IMG/VR virus record: IMGVR_UViG_3300045988_160236
Coordinates: 95,578 to 159,577 of that record
From: a virus
Length of the DNA: 64,000 bases
Reading direction: 5' to 3' (one strand)
This document shows, one piece after another, positions 23,577-60,342 of the stretch; within the stretch, counting starts at the first letter, position 1, and every line of letters begins with the position of its first letter. Under the pieces are notes generated by a model that did no database searches, was not told the DNA's origin, and saw only the letters and a program-made list of their open reading frames with translations. Both the position numbers and the translations under genes were made by a program.

Positions 23577-24674
23577 TTAAAACAAATTTAATGATTCTTT
23601 TCTTATTTCATTCAATATTGATTTGACTAAATCTGGATCTACTGAATGTGGTAAATCACTGTCTTCAAATTTTTGCTTCAACCCTTTAATTTGATTTCTT
23701 GCTGATTCAAGTAATTCTTCTAAAGATACTTTTCCATGTCTAATAGATAGTAAATATTCAGGGTTCTTAACTCTAACATTAATAGTTTTAAGATCTAAGA
23801 TATCATTAGCACATTGTAATAATCTTATACAATGTAACATATTTTTGCCATCGATCTTTTGTCCATGATTTTGAATATCTACATATCTTTGTGTGTTTCT
23901 TTCTTTCAGCCAAGTTTGGTAGGAATTATAGTCTTTACAATGCTCTCCCCAACCATTCCTATTGTAGTAAAGGTTGCACCTACACATAGGAATTTGCCAT
24001 TCTGGAATCTCTGAAAGTAGTAATTCAACATCATTACAAACTCCTTTATATCCAAAATCTTTCCAATCTTTATATCTAGGATTAGACAAGTCTTTGGTCT
24101 TAGACATTTCTTTAATGTCATCATACCACAAAGCATAAAGATTCTCTGAATCATTGACTTTAGCAAGTCCACAGCAATCCTCATGCATCTGATTACGCTT
24201 TAACCATTCAGCAAGAGGATATGTTTTACAGTTATCAATAACTTTTAGAAAATCAATTGGCCTTTTTCTTTTTACTTTATCAGCCTCCCAATTCATTTTC
24301 TTATTTAGCCCTTTAGCCTTTTCTACTTGTTGGTATGCATAACCAGCAAAACTAAAGTAGCATTGTTTAGTTAGAAATGCACTTCTATGTTTCGATATAA
24401 TATCCCACAAAGGGTGCTTTTCTAGAATACAATCTTCAGGAATATACAAAAGTTCCAACATTGTAGGATTTCCACTACAAAGTAGTTGCAAAAATCTTCT
24501 AACTTCATATAAGCAGGCATCCTTATCCAGGTTAATCTGTTCCTTATATTCCATCCCTAAGACTTCCATAGGATCCTGAAGATATACTCCCTTTGTATCA
24601 ATGTCAGAGTCAGGCGTATTTGTTCCATACGCCTGACTTCCAACAATTGCATTTAACAATATGATTTTATTCAT
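23577..24674 (-). CDS. Pol-beta-superfamily nucleotidyltransferase (minimal NTase / KNTase-like)
   Basis: N-terminal 'GSQAYGTNTPDSDIDTKGV' (GS-x-AYG…SDxD). Confidence 0.5.
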   Translation of the reverse strand: MNKIILLNAIVGSQAYGTNTPDSDIDTKGVYLQDPMEVLGMEYKEQINLDKDACLYEVRRFLQLLCSGNPTMLELLYIPEDCILEKHPLWDIISKHRSAFLTKQCYFSFAGYAYQQVEKAKGLNKKMNWEADKVKRKRPIDFLKVIDNCKTYPLAEWLKRNQMHEDCCGLAKVNDSENLYALWYDDIKEMSKTKDLSNPRYKDWKDFGYKGVCNDVELLLSEIPEWQIPMCRCNLYYNRNGWGEHCKDYNSYQTWLKERNTQRYVDIQNHGQKIDGKNMLHCIRLLQCANDILDLKTINVRVKNPEYLLSIRHGKVSLEELLESARNQIKGLKQKFEDSDLPHSVDPDLVKSILNEIRKESLNLF

Positions 24675-24844
24675 CCTTTAAAGCTTTACAGAAACTATAG
24701 CATAACTGTCCAGCTAATGAACCAAGGTCAGAAGTTTCTGTTACTGGAGGATCAAAGTACAATTTAAACTCTAAATCTCCAACATCGTTTAATCAACAAT
24801 CCACGATACTGTCTTGTGCTAAAGTTTCATCTCTAAAAATTACT

Positions 24845-25753
24845 TTACAAGTTTTCATAATTGAAATTAATTTCCTTAATAGGAGTAAGATTAAAGGAAC
24901 TTGGAGTAACCATAATCTTCTCTCCTAAAATAAGGTTTTTAGATAGACTTTCAGGAGGATATAAATAGCATCCTAACTTATTTTGATTACATAAAGAGTC
25001 ATAGAAATGTGCTCCAAATGCAACTTGTTTAAAGTCTATATCTTGTTCAAGAAGATATTCAAATGCTTCTTGCGAGTATTTATTTGATGACCGACCAGAA
25101 GGCATCAAAGGAAGTAGTACAAAGTATAGAACAATATCTTTATATTGATTATAAATTTTAATAAAGTCATCAACAGACTTTTTATCACTAATTATATAAT
25201 GAATATTGATATTAGTGTTCCCAAATTCATGCAGAAGTACTACAGCACTTCTCCAAGCAGAATCTATTTCTGGATTCCATGTATTTGCTGAAACAGCAAC
25301 TCCTCCTACATATTTGGAAGTGGCTGCTAAAATTTCTTCTGCATTACCATCATATTTGGCTATTGAGATTCCATTAGTTGTATAGTTAGGAACGATCCCC
25401 AAACTATATATTGTTTTGAGAAACTCACAAAACTCAGGATGAATTGTAGGTTCTCCTGTAGAACCAATTGCAATCTGAAAAGGTTTCTCATTCTCAGTCA
25501 TGTTGCCAAAGAAAAATTTAGCCTTTTCACATATATGATCATGATTTACTCCTTTAGATGTGGCTCCAACATAACAAAATGGGCATCCTAGATTACAAAG
25601 AGTATTAATTCCAACATCGTAGAATTCTGGGTAATCTAATTCTTTAGCTTGCCCAGAACCTAATCGAACAGTCTTTAAATCATGCCAAATTGCATTATAA
25701 TTCTTATCTGGGAATACTCTTTTCTTAATTCCCCATGCTTTCCAATCTTTCAT
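24845..25753 (-). CDS. radical SAM enzyme
   Basis: CxxxCxxC cluster 'CNLGCPFCY' near residue 55; GGE-like 'GSTGEPT'. Confidence 0.55.
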   Translation of the reverse strand: MKDWKAWGIKKRVFPDKNYNAIWHDLKTVRLGSGQAKELDYPEFYDVGINTLCNLGCPFCYVGATSKGVNHDHICEKAKFFFGNMTENEKPFQIAIGSTGEPTIHPEFCEFLKTIYSLGIVPNYTTNGISIAKYDGNAEEILAATSKYVGGVAVSANTWNPEIDSAWRSAVVLLHEFGNTNINIHYIISDKKSVDDFIKIYNQYKDIVLYFVLLPLMPSGRSSNKYSQEAFEYLLEQDIDFKQVAFGAHFYDSLCNQNKLGCYLYPPESLSKNLILGEKIMVTPSSFNLTPIKEINFNYENL

Positions 25754-25758
25754 TTTTA

Positions 25759-26082
25759 TTAAGAATCAAAAGAAGCATTTTGTTCAAATATATCCATTAT
25801 ATTAGATAAATATTTGGCAGCTTCAGTGTAGTTTTCTTTTTTTGGGATAACTTTATAACCTCTATCATAATAGTTATAGTACTCATCAGGTTCTTCCTCT
25901 AACTCAAAGGTAAATAAGTCATCTGCTGTAAGTGTAGAATCAGCGATTTTTAAGATACTATTAACAATATCTTTTAATCTATCTAAAGTATATTCTGTAC
26001 AAACCGTATAAATCTCTGTACTGCTGTTTGTAATTACATCAGAAACAGATTGTATTTTAATTATAATTCTCTCCATCTTCAA
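25759..26082 (-). CDS. paralog family protein A (107 aa) with conserved N-terminal 'IQSVSDVITNSSTEIY' motif
   Basis: Shares an N-terminal motif with the next two ORFs. Confidence 0.45.
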   Translation of the reverse strand: MKMERIIIKIQSVSDVITNSSTEIYTVCTEYTLDRLKDIVNSILKIADSTLTADDLFTFELEEEPDEYYNYYDRGYKVIPKKENYTEAAKYLSNIMDIFEQNASFDS

Positions 26083-26389
26083 CAGTAAATGAATTATCCC
26101 CTGGAAAATGCTCCTTTAATAATTGTTTTATTAAAGTGTACATCTGTCTTCCAGTCTTTTCATGGTCTTCTGAGTAACTAATCTGAAACGTAATAACATA
26201 TCTAGATTCATCAATTGTAAAGATATCAGAAGGACTTGAATACTTAACACCATCAGGAAGGAATGAATTAAGATATTCCTGAACCATCTTTATTGAATCT
26301 TCAGATAAAGAAGATATAGCACAAAAGATCTCACTAGATGAATTTGTAATTAAATCCGATTCAGATTGTATATTTATTTTTATTTTCAT
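26057..26389 (-). CDS. paralog family protein B (110 aa), 'IQSESDLITNSSSEIF'
   Basis: Tandem paralog. Confidence 0.45.
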   Translation of the reverse strand: MKIKINIQSESDLITNSSSEIFCAISSLSEDSIKMVQEYLNSFLPDGVKYSSPSDIFTIDESRYVITFQISYSEDHEKTGRQMYTLIKQLLKEHFPGDNSFTVEDGENYN

Positions 26390-26390
26390 A

Positions 26391-26897
26391 TTATCCTAAA
26401 TGATAGCGGGAACCAAAGGTCATCATCTTTTCTTGTCGCTCCCAATCTGGATTTTCCCCTTTTGAGAAAACAAAAACTAAGTTTGGATTAAGTTTTTGTT
26501 TAATGAGTTTATCCCAACCTTCTTTGAGTCGTAATCGAGAAATTTCCCATTTTTCAGAATTTGGATCCCACTCTTTATAATTTTTGTAAAGATCATTTGG
26601 GTCAATATTAAATTCTCTAGCCCAACGAGTTTGTCTACTTGTTTCTCTAGTTATTCGTTTATTGTCCCAGTTCCAATCATAATTGTCGTAAGCATAAGAA
26701 AGATACGTTTCTAAAGAGTTGGGACTTAAATCCTGTACTGACTGTGGGTCATCATATTCGTGCTCCCATCCTGGAACATTAGAATCTAACATATCACTTA
26801 CAACTCCAGTGGTTCCAGTAAATACAAACAGCTCACTAGAACTATTTGTAACCACATCAGTAAATGATTGAATTTGAAATACAAATAATGTTTTCAT
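26391..26897 (-). CDS. paralog family protein C (168 aa), 'IQSFTDVVTNSSSELF'
   Basis: Tandem paralog, with a longer W/D/N-rich C-terminus. Confidence 0.45.
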   Translation of the reverse strand: MKTLFVFQIQSFTDVVTNSSSELFVFTGTTGVVSDMLDSNVPGWEHEYDDPQSVQDLSPNSLETYLSYAYDNYDWNWDNKRITRETSRQTRWAREFNIDPNDLYKNYKEWDPNSEKWEISRLRLKEGWDKLIKQKLNPNLVFVFSKGENPDWERQEKMMTFGSRYHLG

Positions 26898-26907
26898 ATA
26901 ACAAAAA

Positions 26908-26933
26908 AGAGTAGAAGATCCCTCTTCTACTCT
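26908..26933 (-). terminator. rho-independent terminator (minus strand)
   Basis: 11-bp perfect hairpin agagtagaaga/tcttctactct with a 4-nt loop, followed on the minus strand by TTTTTTGTT. Confidence 0.55.
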
Positions 26934-27025
26934 TTCAATTTAATTAATTTATAAAATTCTTCTTTAGGAATAATAACAACTTCTCCAGCTGAGCAAATAT
27001 TAGTCTGCTTTTTAACTTGTTTATT

Positions 27026-27322
27026 TCAGATTAAAATAAATGGTTTATCCTTTAATGGACACTCTGCACTTATTTGATGATATGCTGGAGTATTCTGAGT
27101 ACACTTTAACTGAACATAGTAAGGAAACTGGTTTTGAGTATCAATCAAATCTACTTTCTTATCATCAGTAGATTTAGACTCAGACCTGGAGGTAACAATT
27201 CCTTCATATCCTAATTCCCTAAGTTCCTTAGCTATTTTAGTTTCATATGAATGTCCTTTAGTTCTAGAGTATGATTTAGACCTCTTCTTCTTTGGACTTT
27301 CTTCTTCTTTCTTCTTCGGCAT
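27026..27322 (-). CDS. small PD-(D/E)XK-like nuclease with basic N-terminus (98 aa)
   Basis: 'SYETKIAKEL…VDLID…YVQLK' E…D…QxK pattern; lysine-rich N-terminus. Confidence 0.35.
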   Translation of the reverse strand: MPKKKEEESPKKKRSKSYSRTKGHSYETKIAKELRELGYEGIVTSRSESKSTDDKKVDLIDTQNQFPYYVQLKCTQNTPAYHQISAECPLKDKPFILI

Positions 27323-28319
27323 TAACCTTAAGTTTAGCTTGTTCGATTAAGTTCAATGTTTTTTCCCTACCATACTTCTTATAATAGTCAGAAATATCTT
27401 TCGCGCCAAAATGACGGGGGATTCATAACACATAAACATCTGGAAATTGTTTTCTAAACTTATTCATGTGAGTTATTCCAGCAGAGTCATTATCGTAAAA
27501 AAGAATAATTTTTTTAAATTTTTTACTTAGCCTTTCAAATTGAGCCTCTGTAACAAAACAGTTCTCAGAAATTGGGGCTATAGCTGTAATACCACAACTA
27601 TATAAACATGCAACATCTTTTAAAGATTTAGTAATTGCAAGATATTCTCCTCCCTCTTTGGGAAGAGCATGTGCTCCCTGCAACCTAAAAGATTTTCAAT
27701 TAGATATAAATTTATACTTTGTATTGCCAGGAAAATATATTCTCCAGCGTTCAATATCTTCTCGAATACCTCCAAAATACCCAAAAACTAATTGTTTATC
27801 TTTATGAAGATGAAATATGTTTCCATTTAGAAAAACGTTCTTACAGGAAAATATTCTAAATTTCCTTAATATTTTTCTAGTAACTCCAAATTTTAGCCAT
27901 CAATCTAACTCATACTGCTCAAAATCCTTCACTTCTATTTGTATAATAGCTTCTTGTGTTTCCTCAAACTTTTTATTTGTATATTTAATAAGAGGGGGAT
28001 TAACTTGCAGCTTAGGTCGAGAGACTATTCCAAAGTCATTAGCAATAATATTTAAGGCTTTTCCGTAAGAGCATTGAAATTTATACATTACAACCGAAAT
28101 GAAATTACCTGAAAAATCACCACGGAAGTCCTTAAATATAAGATCTCCTTTCTTGTTTCTATAAAAAGCACAAGTGGGTTTATTATCTTGTCTTAACGGA
28201 GATTTTAGGAGCCCCTTTTTCACAGGGACTCCTAAATAATGCTCCATTAAAGTTTCTTCACTTACACTGTTCAGAATTAGTTCTTTAGTAACAGTGGTCG
28301 GTCCTAATGTAAATTGCAT
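27276..28319 (-). CDS. DNA primase (DnaG/TOPRIM type); in-frame TGA at 27423, 27696 and 27900
   Basis: TOPRIM 'ILFYDNDSAGI', Zn-binding N-terminal region; three fragments in one frame; true stop is TAA at 27276-27278. Confidence 0.7.
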
Positions 28320-51289: not shown

Positions 51290-52179
51290 TATCGTCGATG
51301 TATGTCAAATATATTAGGTTTTGATTCTGTATTTTCTACAGTTCCTTCTGCAGAAATCTCTTCAATTACTGAAGAGCTACCTTTTAGAGTTTTACCCATA
51401 GCTTCACAAATGGCTTCTACAACTTCATCAGGCTTGCACACAATAAAGTTTTCTCTAAGAATTTCTTTCATTTGTTTAGCTACTACCTCATCATAATGTT
51501 CACTTCCATGTCGAACATGGATATGAAACACATGATACTTTTCACAAGCGAGTTCATAAGCCTCTTGCCAGGTATAATCACGCTCATACTCCATTCCAGT
51601 GAGAGCTGCCAAAGTTCCCCTACTTATTCTTGTTAAAGTAGGCTCATCACCAACTGTAAAGAGGAATCCTTTTTGCTTTCGCTTTTCCCAACTATCAATT
51701 GACGTATGATTTCCTGCAATAATCCAAGGAAGTAAGTAGGATTCTCCACTATTACCTCCACCACGACCCTCCAAATAAATTTTAGAGAGACACTGATTAA
51801 TTGCAACAGTTGAAGATTCGAATTGACCTACCTGACACGGGTAGTAATCACATTCATGATCTCCCACTCCCATAAAAAGAATTTGAGGGTGTTTAACTCC
51901 AATAGAATCAATAATAGAATCCATTAACTTCGGAAGATAATCCCTGATCATCTTATCAGGAATTGAACCCATTGAACCAGTTTCATCTAATGCAATGAAA
52001 ACTGGAAGAGATTCTGGGTGTTCCTCAGAATCTCTAGATTCTCGAATATGTGTCTTACTTTTTGTAAGATCCATTTCTTCGTGTAGAGATCTTTGATGAA
52101 AGATTTCTTCTCTGGATTTTTTAGTATAGCTATCAGCAAAAGCTTTATATGTGTTAGAACTCCATGATCCGCTTCCCAT
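51289..52179 (-). CDS. von Willebrand factor A (vWA) domain protein
   Basis: MIDAS 'IALDETGSMGS'. Confidence 0.5.
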   Translation of the reverse strand: MGSGSWSSNTYKAFADSYTKKSREEIFHQRSLHEEMDLTKSKTHIRESRDSEEHPESLPVFIALDETGSMGSIPDKMIRDYLPKLMDSIIDSIGVKHPQILFMGVGDHECDYYPCQVGQFESSTVAINQCLSKIYLEGRGGGNSGESYLLPWIIAGNHTSIDSWEKRKQKGFLFTVGDEPTLTRISRGTLAALTGMEYERDYTWQEAYELACEKYHVFHIHVRHGSEHYDEVVAKQMKEILRENFIVCKPDEVVEAICEAMGKTLKGSSSVIEEISAEGTVENTESKPNIFDIHRR

Positions 52180-52180
52180 A

Positions 52181-52969
52181 TTAATAATGTATTTTAATTA
52201 CATGATCTTTGTGATACGCAGCTTCATGTAATTTTAAGATTTTTAATTCTTGTTCAGTAAAAGCACATTGTATTCTACCTGTGCAAGTAAGATTTCGCTG
52301 CTTTACAATAAGAGTGTCAAGCTCTTTATATGTAAAACCAAAATTTTCTTCATCAGACTTTCCTGTTAATCCATCTGCAGGAGTCTTACGTATAAGATCA
52401 TATGGGAGCCCCATATAGTCTCCTAAAGAAATAACTTCAGAACATGTTAATTGAGAAATAGGATTAATATCAGATGCCAAATCTCCCCATTTAGTTCCCC
52501 AACCAATAAATAATTCTGAAGCATTACTAGTCCCAGCTACTCGATATCCTACAGACTGAGCTATAGTATATAGAATAGTCATACGAATACGAGGAGGAAC
52601 ATTAGTAAGAGCCTTTTTCGTTACTGGAATGTTTTCTTCATTCCCTTCCACTGTAGTTATTTTCGAAACATCAATTTGATGAATAAGTTCATCAAATGCA
52701 TTCTCTATATTAACAACAGTATAGTTAATACCAAGAAAGTCACATACTGTATAACTATCCTCAATATCAGCTTGCTTACCATTAGGCATTAGCACACCTA
52801 ATACATTTTCCTTACCTATAGAATCTACCAATAATTTGGCCACTACAGTAGAATCCTTTCCTCCAGAAATACCAAGAACATACCCTTTCACATGGGTACG
52901 TTCTTGATAATTCTTAAGAAAGGAAACTATTCCTTCATATACTTCTTTCATTAGAATTTCCCGTTCCAA
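52181..52969 (-). CDS. nadE: NAD+ synthetase (NadE, PP-loop ATPase)
   Basis: PP-loop 'VLGISGGKDSTVVAKL'. Confidence 0.6.
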   Translation of the reverse strand: MEREILMKEVYEGIVSFLKNYQERTHVKGYVLGISGGKDSTVVAKLLVDSIGKENVLGVLMPNGKQADIEDSYTVCDFLGINYTVVNIENAFDELIHQIDVSKITTVEGNEENIPVTKKALTNVPPRIRMTILYTIAQSVGYRVAGTSNASELFIGWGTKWGDLASDINPISQLTCSEVISLGDYMGLPYDLIRKTPADGLTGKSDEENFGFTYKELDTLIVKQRNLTCTGRIQCAFTEQELKILKLHEAAYHKDHVIKIHY

Positions 52970-54435
52970 AGAGTTCTACGAATTTCTGTGAGAGTAGTTT
53001 GCTCCCTCATTTTTCCATCTGAAAAGATAGGACGAAGTAAATTGAAAGGCTCATTATGAGCTTCTTTCAGTGTCATACCTTCATCACAATCAAACTCACC
53101 AGTTACATGGTTGTAGAAGACAGCACAACATCCTTTGTGGGATTTCTTCATTCCTGAATCCGTTTTAGGATCTTTGTAGACCATGATAGATTTAGTTTTT
53201 CCATCAATGGTTTGTTCTACATAGCTGCACTTAATTGCTACATTAAATGTATCGCGAGAGAACATATCCACATTCCCAAACTCATCCATGTAAGAAAGCA
53301 TGGAAAATCCTCCTGCACCAAGTGCAACATTCTCTGCAGAGAATCCTTTATCATACAAAATCTGATAAATCTGTTTTGCACGTAACTGAGTGATGCCATC
53401 ACCATATAAAGCTCGAACATGAGGATCTAAGACTTTATACCCTTTAGAGTTGACAGTACCTCCAAAAGTCTCCCAAAGAGAGAAAACTGTCTCAGTTACA
53501 ATTTCTACAGGATCCCCAGAGTCACCACGAACATACAAAGTGCCGTTTCTACTGAGAATTTCTTCCTTAAGAGATGGAAGAATCTCATCGACAACATTCC
53601 AGTAATCATAGGAATCACTTACCATAGAGAATGATCCATTCGGGTAGACCTCAGTAAGGAGGCGTCGAATCATAACTTTTTCATCCCCATCAATGGCAGC
53701 AGAACTACACATTACGGAGTGCTCAGTAGAAGCCATACCTCCACCTACTACAGACATTGGGGTATGATAATACTTTGAAGCATACATAATGCCAGGAATA
53801 GTCGCAGTCTTATTAAAAGAGAGCAAAAATCCACACGAAGCTTTAATAGCGCCATGAAGTCCAACTAAACTTCTAAATCCGAACTCAGAAATAGCAGAAC
53901 GACCAGAAATATCAGAAGTTTTAGAATAAAAATCATTTACGATACTACGATATTTAGTTACAGCAGTTGCAACACACATTGGATACCAAAGCTCAGAGAG
54001 CATCAAGGTTTCAATGAAATTAGTACACCATGCAAATTCTGGATTAGTATTAGAAATCTCGATACAGGGGACATTCATTCCTACTTTATATCCCTCAGGA
54101 AGTGCCCAGATCTCGATAGGAAGATATCCTAACTCATGAAGCTTTTTAATTTTATCCGAATTAACACGGTCTGCTCCCATAGTAGAAGAAATTACAAATT
54201 CATATTCTGCAATAACTTCTTCTAAAGAACGACTAAAGAAAGTTTCATTCATGTATTCAATCAGATACTCCTCAATAAATGCTTGAATACCAAAAACTAC
54301 TACCTTATCAAATTCAGGAATCCTAGTTTTACGAGGTACATAGTAAGAAACTACCTTAGTGATGCTAGGGTCATATTGCTCTGCATGACATTGTTTATAA
54401 AAATCAGTCAGTAGAGCTCCACAAGGTTTAAACAT
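52951..54435 (-). CDS. nadV: nicotinamide phosphoribosyltransferase (NadV/NAMPT)
   Basis: 494-aa type II PRTase; length and context are typical of phage NadV. Confidence 0.55.
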   Translation of the reverse strand: MFKPCGALLTDFYKQCHAEQYDPSITKVVSYYVPRKTRIPEFDKVVVFGIQAFIEEYLIEYMNETFFSRSLEEVIAEYEFVISSTMGADRVNSDKIKKLHELGYLPIEIWALPEGYKVGMNVPCIEISNTNPEFAWCTNFIETLMLSELWYPMCVATAVTKYRSIVNDFYSKTSDISGRSAISEFGFRSLVGLHGAIKASCGFLLSFNKTATIPGIMYASKYYHTPMSVVGGGMASTEHSVMCSSAAIDGDEKVMIRRLLTEVYPNGSFSMVSDSYDYWNVVDEILPSLKEEILSRNGTLYVRGDSGDPVEIVTETVFSLWETFGGTVNSKGYKVLDPHVRALYGDGITQLRAKQIYQILYDKGFSAENVALGAGGFSMLSYMDEFGNVDMFSRDTFNVAIKCSYVEQTIDGKTKSIMVYKDPKTDSGMKKSHKGCCAVFYNHVTGEFDCDEGMTLKEAHNEPFNLLRPIFSDGKMREQTTLTEIRRTLWNGKF

Positions 54436-54436
54436 A

Positions 54437-55018
54437 TTAATAACGATTAATTATAGTCATTTGTAAACCCTCCATAACATCTAAAGCTTTGTTATGAAGT
54501 TCATTATTATTAGAACGACAGCAGGAAGCATCTATGATGATATCTGCATCAGGGAATGTTTGCTGAAAACTTACAGCACATGAAATAACACAAAGATTAG
54601 TTACTACACCAACCAAAGTAATTTCTGTAATGCAATCAGCGATCTCGAATAAATATTCTCCATCACCTGTCTTAGCATCATTAAACTCATCCTGGATAAA
54701 TCCAAACCTATTTAGTTTATCCATTACATAGCAGGAACGAAGATAAGGCTTAAACTCCTTAATAAGCTTATGACCTTCAGTTCCACAAACACAATGAAGA
54801 ATTGGAAGATTTCTACCTTCACGAGTCATAGCATAGCCAAATCCCCTAGTATCACTATGCTCATAATGAGTATCCCGAGTAAAAAGAACAGCATCATCTG
54901 CTGTTATATACTCTTTAACTAATCTCTCTATAGGAGAAATTATTTCTTCAGCACCAGGAACCGTTAATGCACCTCTGATGAAGTCTTCTTGCATATCAAC
55001 TACTACAAGTAATCGCAT
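54437..55018 (-). CDS. isochorismatase-family hydrolase (nicotinamidase PncA-like)
   Basis: 'LLVVVDMQEDF' isochorismatase N-terminal motif; catalytic Cys context '…VGVVTNLCVISCA'. Confidence 0.5.
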   Translation of the reverse strand: MRLLVVVDMQEDFIRGALTVPGAEEIISPIERLVKEYITADDAVLFTRDTHYEHSDTRGFGYAMTREGRNLPILHCVCGTEGHKLIKEFKPYLRSCYVMDKLNRFGFIQDEFNDAKTGDGEYLFEIADCITEITLVGVVTNLCVISCAVSFQQTFPDADIIIDASCCRSNNNELHNKALDVMEGLQMTIINRY

Positions 55019-60269: not shown

Positions 60270-60342
60270 GGGAAACAATAGGGTTCGAACCTACAATCAC
60301 TAGCAACACACCTAGTTGCTTTACCAATTAAGCTATGTCCCC
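60270..60342 (-). tRNA. tRNA with apparent 8-nt anticodon loop (GTGTGTTG); identity uncertain
   Basis: Acceptor GGGGACA/TGTTTCC; U8; D-stem GCTT/AAGC with AATTGGTA loop; stem ACTAG/CTAGT closes an 8-nt loop; 4-nt variable; T-arm GTAGG-TTCGAAC-CCTAT. Confidence 0.4.

Follow-up and report, generated by a model that had tools for sequence, protein, structure and literature searches.

A radical SAM enzyme paired with a tandem array of small proteins sharing an N-terminal motif in a crAss-like phage and related viral loci

INTRODUCTION

Tandem paralogous genes whose products keep a conserved N-terminus and diverge over the rest of their length, with one adjacent enzyme, are found in multi-precursor systems for peptides made on the ribosome and then modified post-translationally (RiPPs), e.g. 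the prochlorosins with ProcM and the Nif11- and NHLP-leader precursors with radical S-adenosylmethionine (rSAM) maturases. We describe a locus of similar outline in a 64,000-nt stretch of viral DNA, positions 95,578 to 159,577 of the IMG/VR virus record IMGVR_UViG_3300045988_160236 (this whole stretch is called the window below), where an rSAM gene lies beside three tandem genes for small proteins, paralogs A, B and C, which share an N-terminal motif. Compared with the multi-precursor RiPPs, the rSAM core of the phage module has a weak affinity to peptide-maturase rSAMs, and the module is without SPASM or twitch domain, RiPP recognition element (RRE; PqqD-like), leader protease or exporter. 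Its products are 95-280 aa long, with a predicted folded domain and a second motif at the C-terminus; its occurrence is exclusively viral, and conservation is highest in an invariant polar peptide at the very N-terminus.

Other described systems share some of these features. The rSAM activases (PFL-AE and NrdG with GrcA/YfiD; anSME with sulfatases) likewise combine a compact rSAM with a short conserved motif on a folded protein, and GrcA is a small acidic protein of ~127 aa. In the phage paralogs, however, the RVxG[FWY] glycyl-radical motif is not conserved and the (C/S)xPxR motif is absent, while anSME needs SPASM clusters that the phage rSAM does not have. In the pairs MftA/MftC and PqqA/PqqE an rSAM also stands beside a ribosomal product with a conserved Tyr at or near the C-terminus. 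The phage module differs from mycofactocin and PQQ systems in having no MftB/PqqD chaperone and no SPASM, and multiple variable proteins instead of peptides of 20-30 aa; its protein tails end in Y-[ND]-G or HLG, whereas the mycofactocin precursor ends in GVY.

Among phages, the products of the T4 internal-protein loci are small and variable and in many cases acidic; an N-terminal signal is all that they have in common, and it is here that they recombine. The T-even proteins IPI, IPII and IPIII thus resemble the paralogs in fast evolution, a shared N-terminal element and recombination at the shared sequence; still, those loci are not known to carry an rSAM, whereas the module described here is tied to its rSAM almost without exception. 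Among deposited phages the closest rSAMs, those of phrog_7293 (Vibrio phage D479; Enterobacter phage phi5 ORF73), are likewise functionally uncharacterised, but they are ~100 aa longer, carry a Cys-rich C-terminal extension and have no array of the motif-bearing (TNSS) family alongside.

RESULTS AND DISCUSSION

Linkage of the enzyme and the array

The genes of the module and the segments coding for its conserved elements are as follows.

26391-26897, minus strand: paralog A, 168 aa, isoelectric point (pI) 4.9, class A (listing of open reading frames, ORFs)
26832-26870, minus strand: motif-coding segment of paralog A, QSFTDVVTNSSSE, residues 10-22
26057-26389, minus strand: paralog B, 110 aa, pI 4.5, C-terminus ...GENYN (ORF listing)
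26330-26368, minus strand: motif-coding segment of paralog B, QSESDLITNSSSE, residues 8-20
25759-26076, minus strand: paralog C, 105 aa from the ATG at 26076, pI 4.2, recombinant (start taken from orthologues)
26014-26052, minus strand: motif-coding segment of paralog C, QSVSDVITNSSTE, residues 9-21, inside a ~35-nt repeat
24845-25753, minus strand: rSAM enzyme, 302 aa (ORF listing, PF04055)
25574-25597, minus strand: CNLGCPFC codons, residues 53-60, with the [4Fe-4S] ligands C53, C57 and C60

An earlier description of this locus, made from the letters of the window alone (the sequence-only reading), had placed the rSAM gene upstream of the paralogs. The genes are indeed co-directional, but the order is the opposite one: the paralogs precede the rSAM on the minus strand. 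Of the paralog sizes given there, 110 and 168 aa stand; the third, 107 aa, is that of a mechanical ORF with a TTG start at 26082, and was corrected to 105 aa, as orthologues begin at the ATG at 26076. The motif occurs three times in the 64-kb window, each time in one of these paralogs.

We observed that the enzyme and the array were nearly always found together, whichever of them was used as a query. With the rSAM protein, 25 of 25 IMG/VR loci had two to five motif-bearing ORFs directly upstream; with an rSAM profile, 2-7 motif ORFs were adjacent in all 79 loci (79/79). The motif alone retrieved 79 loci, and in 75 of them an rSAM homologue (37-100% identity) lay beside the array. Three of the four rSAM-less loci stop at a contig edge, so that 75 of the 76 evaluable loci carry the enzyme. 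For twenty-one motif loci, 17 of them with an rSAM, similarity to the twelve genes flanking the module in the window could not be detected. Two loci (L149 and L154) have a reversed gene order in which the rSAM precedes the paralogs, and the adjacency is kept. As the linkage is maintained down to 37% identity, in 17 dissimilar contexts and in reversed gene order, inherited synteny cannot explain it. When the ORFs of distant loci were compared, no third gene was found to be constant across them; thus, the core module consists of the rSAM and the array.

These sequence comparisons strongly support the view that the rSAM and the motif-bearing paralogs make one functional unit, and at the level of gene content we regard a two-component, virus-specific module as established. 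The sequence-only reading had offered either a maturase with several RiPP-like substrates or an enzyme with partner subunits; the linkage bears out the functional unit, while membership in a RiPP family is not upheld, given the absence of SPASM, twitch and RRE and the protein size of the partners. The interpretation that we favour, with about even confidence, is that the rSAM docks on or modifies the conserved termini of fast-evolving small proteins, following a RiPP-like logic without being a member of a RiPP family.

The rSAM enzyme

The presence of a 302-aa rSAM with the CNLGCPFC segment, as read from the sequence, was confirmed by the ORF listing and by a Pfam match to PF04055 above the gathering cutoff (33.1 bits versus 29.5, E = 8e-8, residues 52-169). 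In an alignment of 36 homologues, with identities down to 37%, C53, C57 and C60 are invariant and are the sole conserved cysteines. There are no cysteines for an auxiliary cluster, hence neither such a cluster nor a SPASM or twitch domain is to be expected, and no Pfam match to SPASM was found in the protein. The homologues keep the SAM-binding motif GSTGEP (residues 97-102), an N-terminal extension of 45 residues with conserved R12, N18-Y19, T28, R30 and E43-F44-D46, and the further motifs PNYTTNG and, toward the C-terminus, YPPESxSKN...ITPSSF. No RRE (PqqD-like) was detected in the rSAM or in the scanned neighbours in the window; the ORFs of the distant loci were compared with each other and not scanned for PqqD-like domains.

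Several assignments to known rSAM enzymes were tried and rejected. On the sequence-only reading the enzyme should be neither a standard NrdG nor a standard QueE, and this proved correct: TIGR02495 (NrdG) gave 20 bits versus a cutoff of 131, and phrog_2076 (QueE) gave E = 0.03 and 14.8 bits, with QueE absent among the 25 of 27 NCBIfam matches listed. Viperin was rejected on 25.8 bits versus a cutoff of 180 (NF038283), pVip on a PADLOC match spanning only the cluster-binding part (positions 6-107 of 257), MftC on 27 bits versus a cutoff of 265 (TIGR03962) together with the absence of MftB, and MoaA by the curated cutoffs. All NCBIfam maturase models scored 12-33 bits versus cutoffs of 170-650; for NirJ, TrsS, the tungsten-cofactor maturase and the SPASM maturases among them the cutoffs are 250-650. 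The top weak NCBIfam profile matches were mostly SPASM-type maturases (tungsten-cofactor maturase, TrsS, NirJ, MftC and WgkB), with the lipid synthase Tes in addition, all far under cutoff.

Against PDB sequences only the cluster-binding third of the enzyme matched, the best hit being the tetraether synthase Tes (E = 1e-5; 3e-9 with the profile); the profile gave matches to the generic core only, such as Tes, SPL, CteB, TYW1 and viperin. A weak TYW1-like match covers residues 86-230 (E = 0.06-0.08). The nearest rSAMs in deposited phage genomes are uncharacterised and 26-28% identical (phrog_7293, E = 2e-10). In a collection of 5.8 billion proteins the family has >1,500 members, most of them on contigs of 100-250 kb, and not a single informative name. 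Judged by these alignments and profile scores, the protein is a stand-alone rSAM enzyme, predicted to hold a single [4Fe-4S] cluster and belonging to a previously undescribed subfamily.

Two side observations concern the rSAM gene itself. In several related strains (L038:7620-8850, and also L020, L021, L039, L061, L064, L066, L067 and L097) it is interrupted after codon 96, within GSTGEP, by an insertion of 0.6-1.5 kb with remnants of short ORFs. The insertion resembles an intron whose homing endonuclease has decayed; Rfam gave no group I or group II intron family in it. Also, one protein (P0060, 325 aa, a single member) starts as an rSAM homologue and turns Flavodoxin_4-like (PF12682) past residue ~235; it could be genuine, with a reductase partner fused to the enzyme, or come from a chimeric assembly.

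The small-protein family

The N-terminal block that the sequence-only reading saw in all three paralogs is real: A, B and C agree in eight residues (Q, S, D, T, N, S, S, E), and BLASTP aligned C with B at E = 2e-8 and B with A at E = 5e-5. Two elements define the family, the N-terminal peptide [HQ]-S-x2-D-x-[IV]-T-N-S-S-x-E and a C-terminal tail that has a Tyr close to its end. A profile search of 1.84 billion cluster representatives retrieved 2,567 clusters (counted at 50% identity) at E <= 1e-3 and 752 at E <= 1e-10, nearly all of them of 95-200 aa; members of the arrays range from 95 to 280 aa, the long members of class A having 243-281 aa. For 141 representatives (50% clustering) the N-terminal consensus is I-[PKN]-[IV]-[HQ]-S-[FIV]-[VIS]-D-[LVI]-I-T-N-S-S-[ST]-E-[IVL]-[FY], where N-S-S is invariant and S, D, I, T and E are almost so. 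The motif always lies 5-10 residues from the N-terminus, and T-N-S-S falls at residues 12-20 in nearly all members. Past the motif, conservation runs on through a helix and a strand, 'GS..x.ADDLF.FEL'.

The C-terminal tail is the second conserved element, S-N-L-x-x-L-F-[DE]-I-[ED]-A-x-Y-[ND]-(G)-COOH, which the sequence-only reading had missed. A Tyr occurs within the last five residues in 114 of the 141 members, versus a background of 23% in windows of equal size elsewhere in the same proteins. In class A, to which paralog A and the members of 243-281 aa belong, the end is always R-[YH]-H-L-G-COOH, with h-h-h-h-S-x-x-[DE]-N in front of it; a profile-to-profile alignment over the first 57 columns related this class to the main class with a probability of 99.3%. 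The proteins are acidic: 273 distinct array members have a median pI of 4.5, and the three in the window have pI 4.2-4.9. In paralog B orthologues P0128-P0138 we saw many short in-frame deletions right after the motif (e.g. AISSLSEDSIKMV, AISEDSIKMV and AIMVQEYL), which could be either genuine hypervariability or artefacts in the assembly of Logan contigs.

No match of the paralogs to a known structural family was obtained in family libraries, in a profile search of PDB sequences (zero matches), with Foldseek or in BFVD, in line with the sequence-only reading. Pfam, NCBIfam, PHROGs and PADLOC gave noise only, as did Pfam for class A members of 243-281 aa. Paralog C was modelled by AlphaFold2 with alignments of 31 and then 111 sequences. 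In both models residues 25-100 form a helix-strand-strand-helix domain with a predicted local distance difference test (pLDDT) score mostly >90, the invariant first 22 residues have pLDDT of 50-60 and no secondary structure, and the final residues are also of lower confidence; the deeper alignment left the N-terminal motif disordered. Such an invariant, low-pLDDT N-terminus is what a peptide folding only on its partner would look like, and the models are suggestive in this respect; since invariant columns carry no covariation signal, they are not proof. In a Foldseek search of the PDB the best E-value of the model was 0.58, and the BFVD fold search returned only two uncharacterised phage proteins, probably members of the family themselves.

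The family was also looked for outside metagenomic viruses. A tblastn search of 50,697 deposited phage genomes gave no match, and among 185,579 bacterial and archaeal species (one genome each) only 10 short contigs of metagenome-assembled genomes (MAGs) matched, with none from isolate genomes. As deposited phages are unmatched and cellular genomes give only the 10 MAG contigs, the family is, on these searches, apparently confined to uncultivated viruses. In Vibrio phage D479 an acidic orphan of 132 aa, starting with MKIRNGFVSNSSSSSFVI, is encoded 1.4 kb upstream of the distant rSAM (L030:3140-3538). Its N-terminus resembles the motif core, h-h-[ST]-N-S-S-S-x-x-F-V, and matches only the first 19 positions of phrog_7397; this candidate for a distant analogue was dropped, having no homologues in the 5.8 billion proteins or in the phage collection. 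Motif proteins were not found at the rSAM locus of Enterobacter phage phi5.

The suggestion that no phage module of such composition had been described held in a literature search: we found no published description of the motif, of this phage rSAM or of their pairing, though an account in a subscription journal is possible.

Gain and loss of array members

Strains with rSAMs at least 97% identical carry two, three or four paralogs. In comparison with the four-copy strain L008 (L008:5391-5952) the window has lost 286 nt between two ~35-nt repeats that code for the motif. Because of this deletion the start of the fourth paralog, D (101 aa in four-copy strains), was joined at the motif to the body of C, and paralog C of the window is a hybrid of the two. 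Fusions of B with C and of A with C, also joined at the motif, are present in other strains. The paralogs diverge faster than the rSAM and the primase: in L063, for instance, their identity is 40-45%, versus 70% for the rSAM and 66% for the primase. By these alignments, the copy number of the array rises and falls through recombination at the repeat that codes for the motif.

Such dynamics would fit an explanation in which the N-terminal block has nothing to do with the rSAM and serves in sorting, processing or assembly (e.g. as a capsid-targeting peptide cleaved by prohead protease, or as a strand for oligomerisation), the rSAM standing nearby by inherited synteny. The resemblance to the T4 internal proteins speaks for it as well. 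We nevertheless consider it the least likely of the explanations weighed here: the rSAM adjacency persists to 37% identity, in the 17 dissimilar contexts and in the reversed order, the module sits in the replication/early block and not in the structural block, and the invariant S/D/T/N/S/S/E set exceeds what a targeting signal usually needs.

The same data bear on another alternative, that the small proteins are partner or adaptor subunits, the N-terminal peptide docking on the rSAM and the variable body either bringing in a different target in each case, be it a host protein, nucleic acid or metabolite, for radical chemistry, or regulating the enzyme. The linkage data fit adaptors just as they fit substrates; the bodies vary while the docking-like terminus is invariant, and the rSAM itself offers no domain for substrate recognition apart from the conserved 45-aa N-terminal extension. 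Still, 1-7 interchangeable subunits per enzyme would be unusual, free change of copy number among near-identical strains suits dispensable substrates or effectors better, and the conserved C-terminal Tyr tail would have no obvious role in an adaptor. We regard this alternative as unlikely.

Neighbouring genes and the phage genome

In the direction of transcription the order at the locus is hairpin, paralogs A, B and C, rSAM, a 63-aa ORF and an RlaP-type nucleotidyltransferase (NTase), all on the minus strand, with starts and stops that overlap or almost touch throughout the module. The features around the core are the following.

26905-26936, minus strand: terminator-like hairpin, 14 bp stem and T-run, between the PDDEXK nuclease gene and paralog A (consensus scan only)
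24667-24858, minus strand: 63-aa ORF with one in-frame TGA, overlapping the rSAM stop and the NTase start
23577-24674, minus strand: RlaP / phrog_388 Pol-beta-type NTase, 365 aa (PF10127, phrog_388)

The hairpin likely marks the start of a new transcription unit, as far as a consensus scan can tell, and the tight packing and overlap of the genes after it are consistent with one operon. No Rfam match was found in the window around the module.

The NTase was identified correctly from the sequence alone (PF10127, 79.6 bits versus a cutoff of 23; phrog_388, E = 1.7e-54); it had been described as lying just upstream of the rSAM, while it is in fact downstream and not a constant member. Apart from the closely related loci, an RlaP NTase stands next to the module only in the unrelated L108, where it follows the rSAM independently (L108:8504-9478). 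A place for it in the core module was rejected, as it is absent in most lineages. Zeta-group relatives have the 63-aa ORF as well (L063-L067, 48% identity), and no counterpart was found in distant loci; it is probably outside the core module. In the L001 lineage an ADP-ribosylglycohydrolase takes the place of the NTase, two genes downstream. An RNA ligase (PF09414) was also seen directly upstream of the arrays in the unrelated loci L068:4045-5073, L105:3809-4825 and L109:4658-5338. Together with the RlaP gene of L108, these ligases make up a recurring neighbourhood of RNA-repair type.

These neighbours bring in the possibility that the two partners share a pathway without contact: the rSAM would modify a nucleotide, tRNA or DNA, or make a small molecule, and the TNSS proteins would bind or carry its product at a site formed by their conserved termini, or would bear a Ser-linked prosthetic group put on by a neighbouring NTase. 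The RNA ligases upstream of the three arrays, the RlaP NTase after the rSAM in the window and in L108, the ADP-ribosylglycohydrolase near the L001 module and the weak TYW1-like match of the rSAM are all in its favour, and the invariant polar residues look like a ligand-binding site. None of the neighbours is constant, however; hypervariability, multiple copies and acidity set the small proteins apart from carriers and enzymes, and no likeness to a known carrier or binding fold was found. We therefore rate a shared pathway as rather improbable.

Transcription is leftward across the whole window. The DNA polymerase encoded in it is 65% identical to that of cr111_1, an uncultured crAss-like phage, and 55% to that of crAss001; IMG/VR contigs near-identical to the window run up to 178 kb. 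The Zeta group of crAss-like phages was described by Yutin et al. (PMC7886860), and the published phage Lera is 179.6 kb in size (PMC12386605). In size, in recoding of TGA to Trp and in intron-like gene interruptions in relatives, the window and its relatives agree with the Zeta group and Lera (PMC7886860, PMC12386605). On this evidence the window belongs to a Zeta-group crAss-like phage akin to Lera. The rSAM and the small proteins are not mentioned in either paper (PMC7886860, PMC12386605).

For an intact primase (27276-28319, minus strand) three in-frame TGA codons have to be translated, and one such TGA lies in the PDDEXK nuclease gene (26927-27322, minus strand); thus, TGA is read as a sense codon, and the residues around these codons fit Trp. 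There are no TGA codons in the rSAM gene or the three paralog genes, and the limits of these genes are therefore unaffected by recoding. A listing with code 4 over positions 1-64000 showed in-frame TGA in ~40 ORFs of the minus strand. ARAGORN found 12 tRNA genes clustered at 41-64 kb, one of them (60270-60342) with a four-base anticodon (gtgt); a suppressor tRNA was not found within the 64-kb window. Reading the translations by eye, we also noted at 49398-55018 what we take to be a block of nucleotide/NAD-salvage genes, presumably including a nicotinamide phosphoribosyltransferase-like protein (52951-54435), an NAD synthetase-like protein (52181-52951) and an isochorismatase/nicotinamidase-like protein (54437-55018).

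A possible mechanism and points that weigh against it

In the interpretation that we favour, modification of the small proteins by the rSAM, one enzyme would serve a tandem array of 1-7 small acidic proteins, each composed of the invariant N-terminal peptide, a compact helix/strand domain with a variable acidic insert and the conserved C-terminal tail. The N-terminal peptide would be bound by the rSAM as a leader or docking element, and with a 5'-deoxyadenosyl radical the enzyme would then modify a conserved terminus post-translationally, at either of two candidate sites, the invariant T-N-S-S segment or the near-terminal Tyr. In this way a single enzyme could mature a whole repertoire of fast-diversifying small proteins, presumably host-directed effectors expressed together with the replication genes. 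The early/replication position, acidity, flux of copy number and fast evolution are compatible with such effectors, a role that we infer from these features.

A more specific version, which we put forward tentatively and think unlikely, is a protein-level analogue of RiPPs, where a minimal rSAM modifies a recombining repertoire of effectors, each aimed at a different host target in defence or takeover. The modification might then be a cross-link of T-N-S-S to the near-C-terminal Tyr, or conversion to a reactive or cofactor-like group.

A number of observations weigh against modification of the small proteins. The five-copy array at L105 has no rSAM within 6 kb downstream. SPASM/twitch domains and an RRE, on which most peptide-modifying rSAMs rely, are lacking in the enzyme, and instead of peptides it would have as substrates folded proteins of 95-280 aa, as far as their predicted domain goes. 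The C-terminal Tyr is not universal; e.g. of the four L001 paralogs two are without it. The low N-terminal pLDDT may simply come from the missing covariation in invariant columns of the alignments. The invariant S, D, T, N, S, S and E could just as well make up a site of the small proteins' own, for ligand binding or catalysis, and the recurrence of RNA ligase and RlaP neighbours could point to a nucleic-acid-directed function of the rSAM. Physical interaction, substrate status, modification site, chemistry and biological role are all inferred here from family, motifs, linkage and copy number.

Significance for phage biology

The pairing of the rSAM with the small proteins, previously undescribed, has been seen only in viruses, and from the near-obligate association with a minimal rSAM follows a hypothesis on both proteins that can be put to a direct test. 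Should the rSAM not modify them, the association would still be an annotation anchor for thousands of hypothetical proteins. If it does, the module would show how an rSAM can recognize a protein substrate without SPASM or RRE, probably with new radical chemistry on Ser, Thr, Asn or Tyr, and Zeta-group crAss-like and other large human-gut phages would possess a diversifying repertoire of effectors. If, further, the protein-level analogy to RiPPs were true, the module would stand for rSAM chemistry of a new class, and its effectors would likewise be a new class among those of phages.

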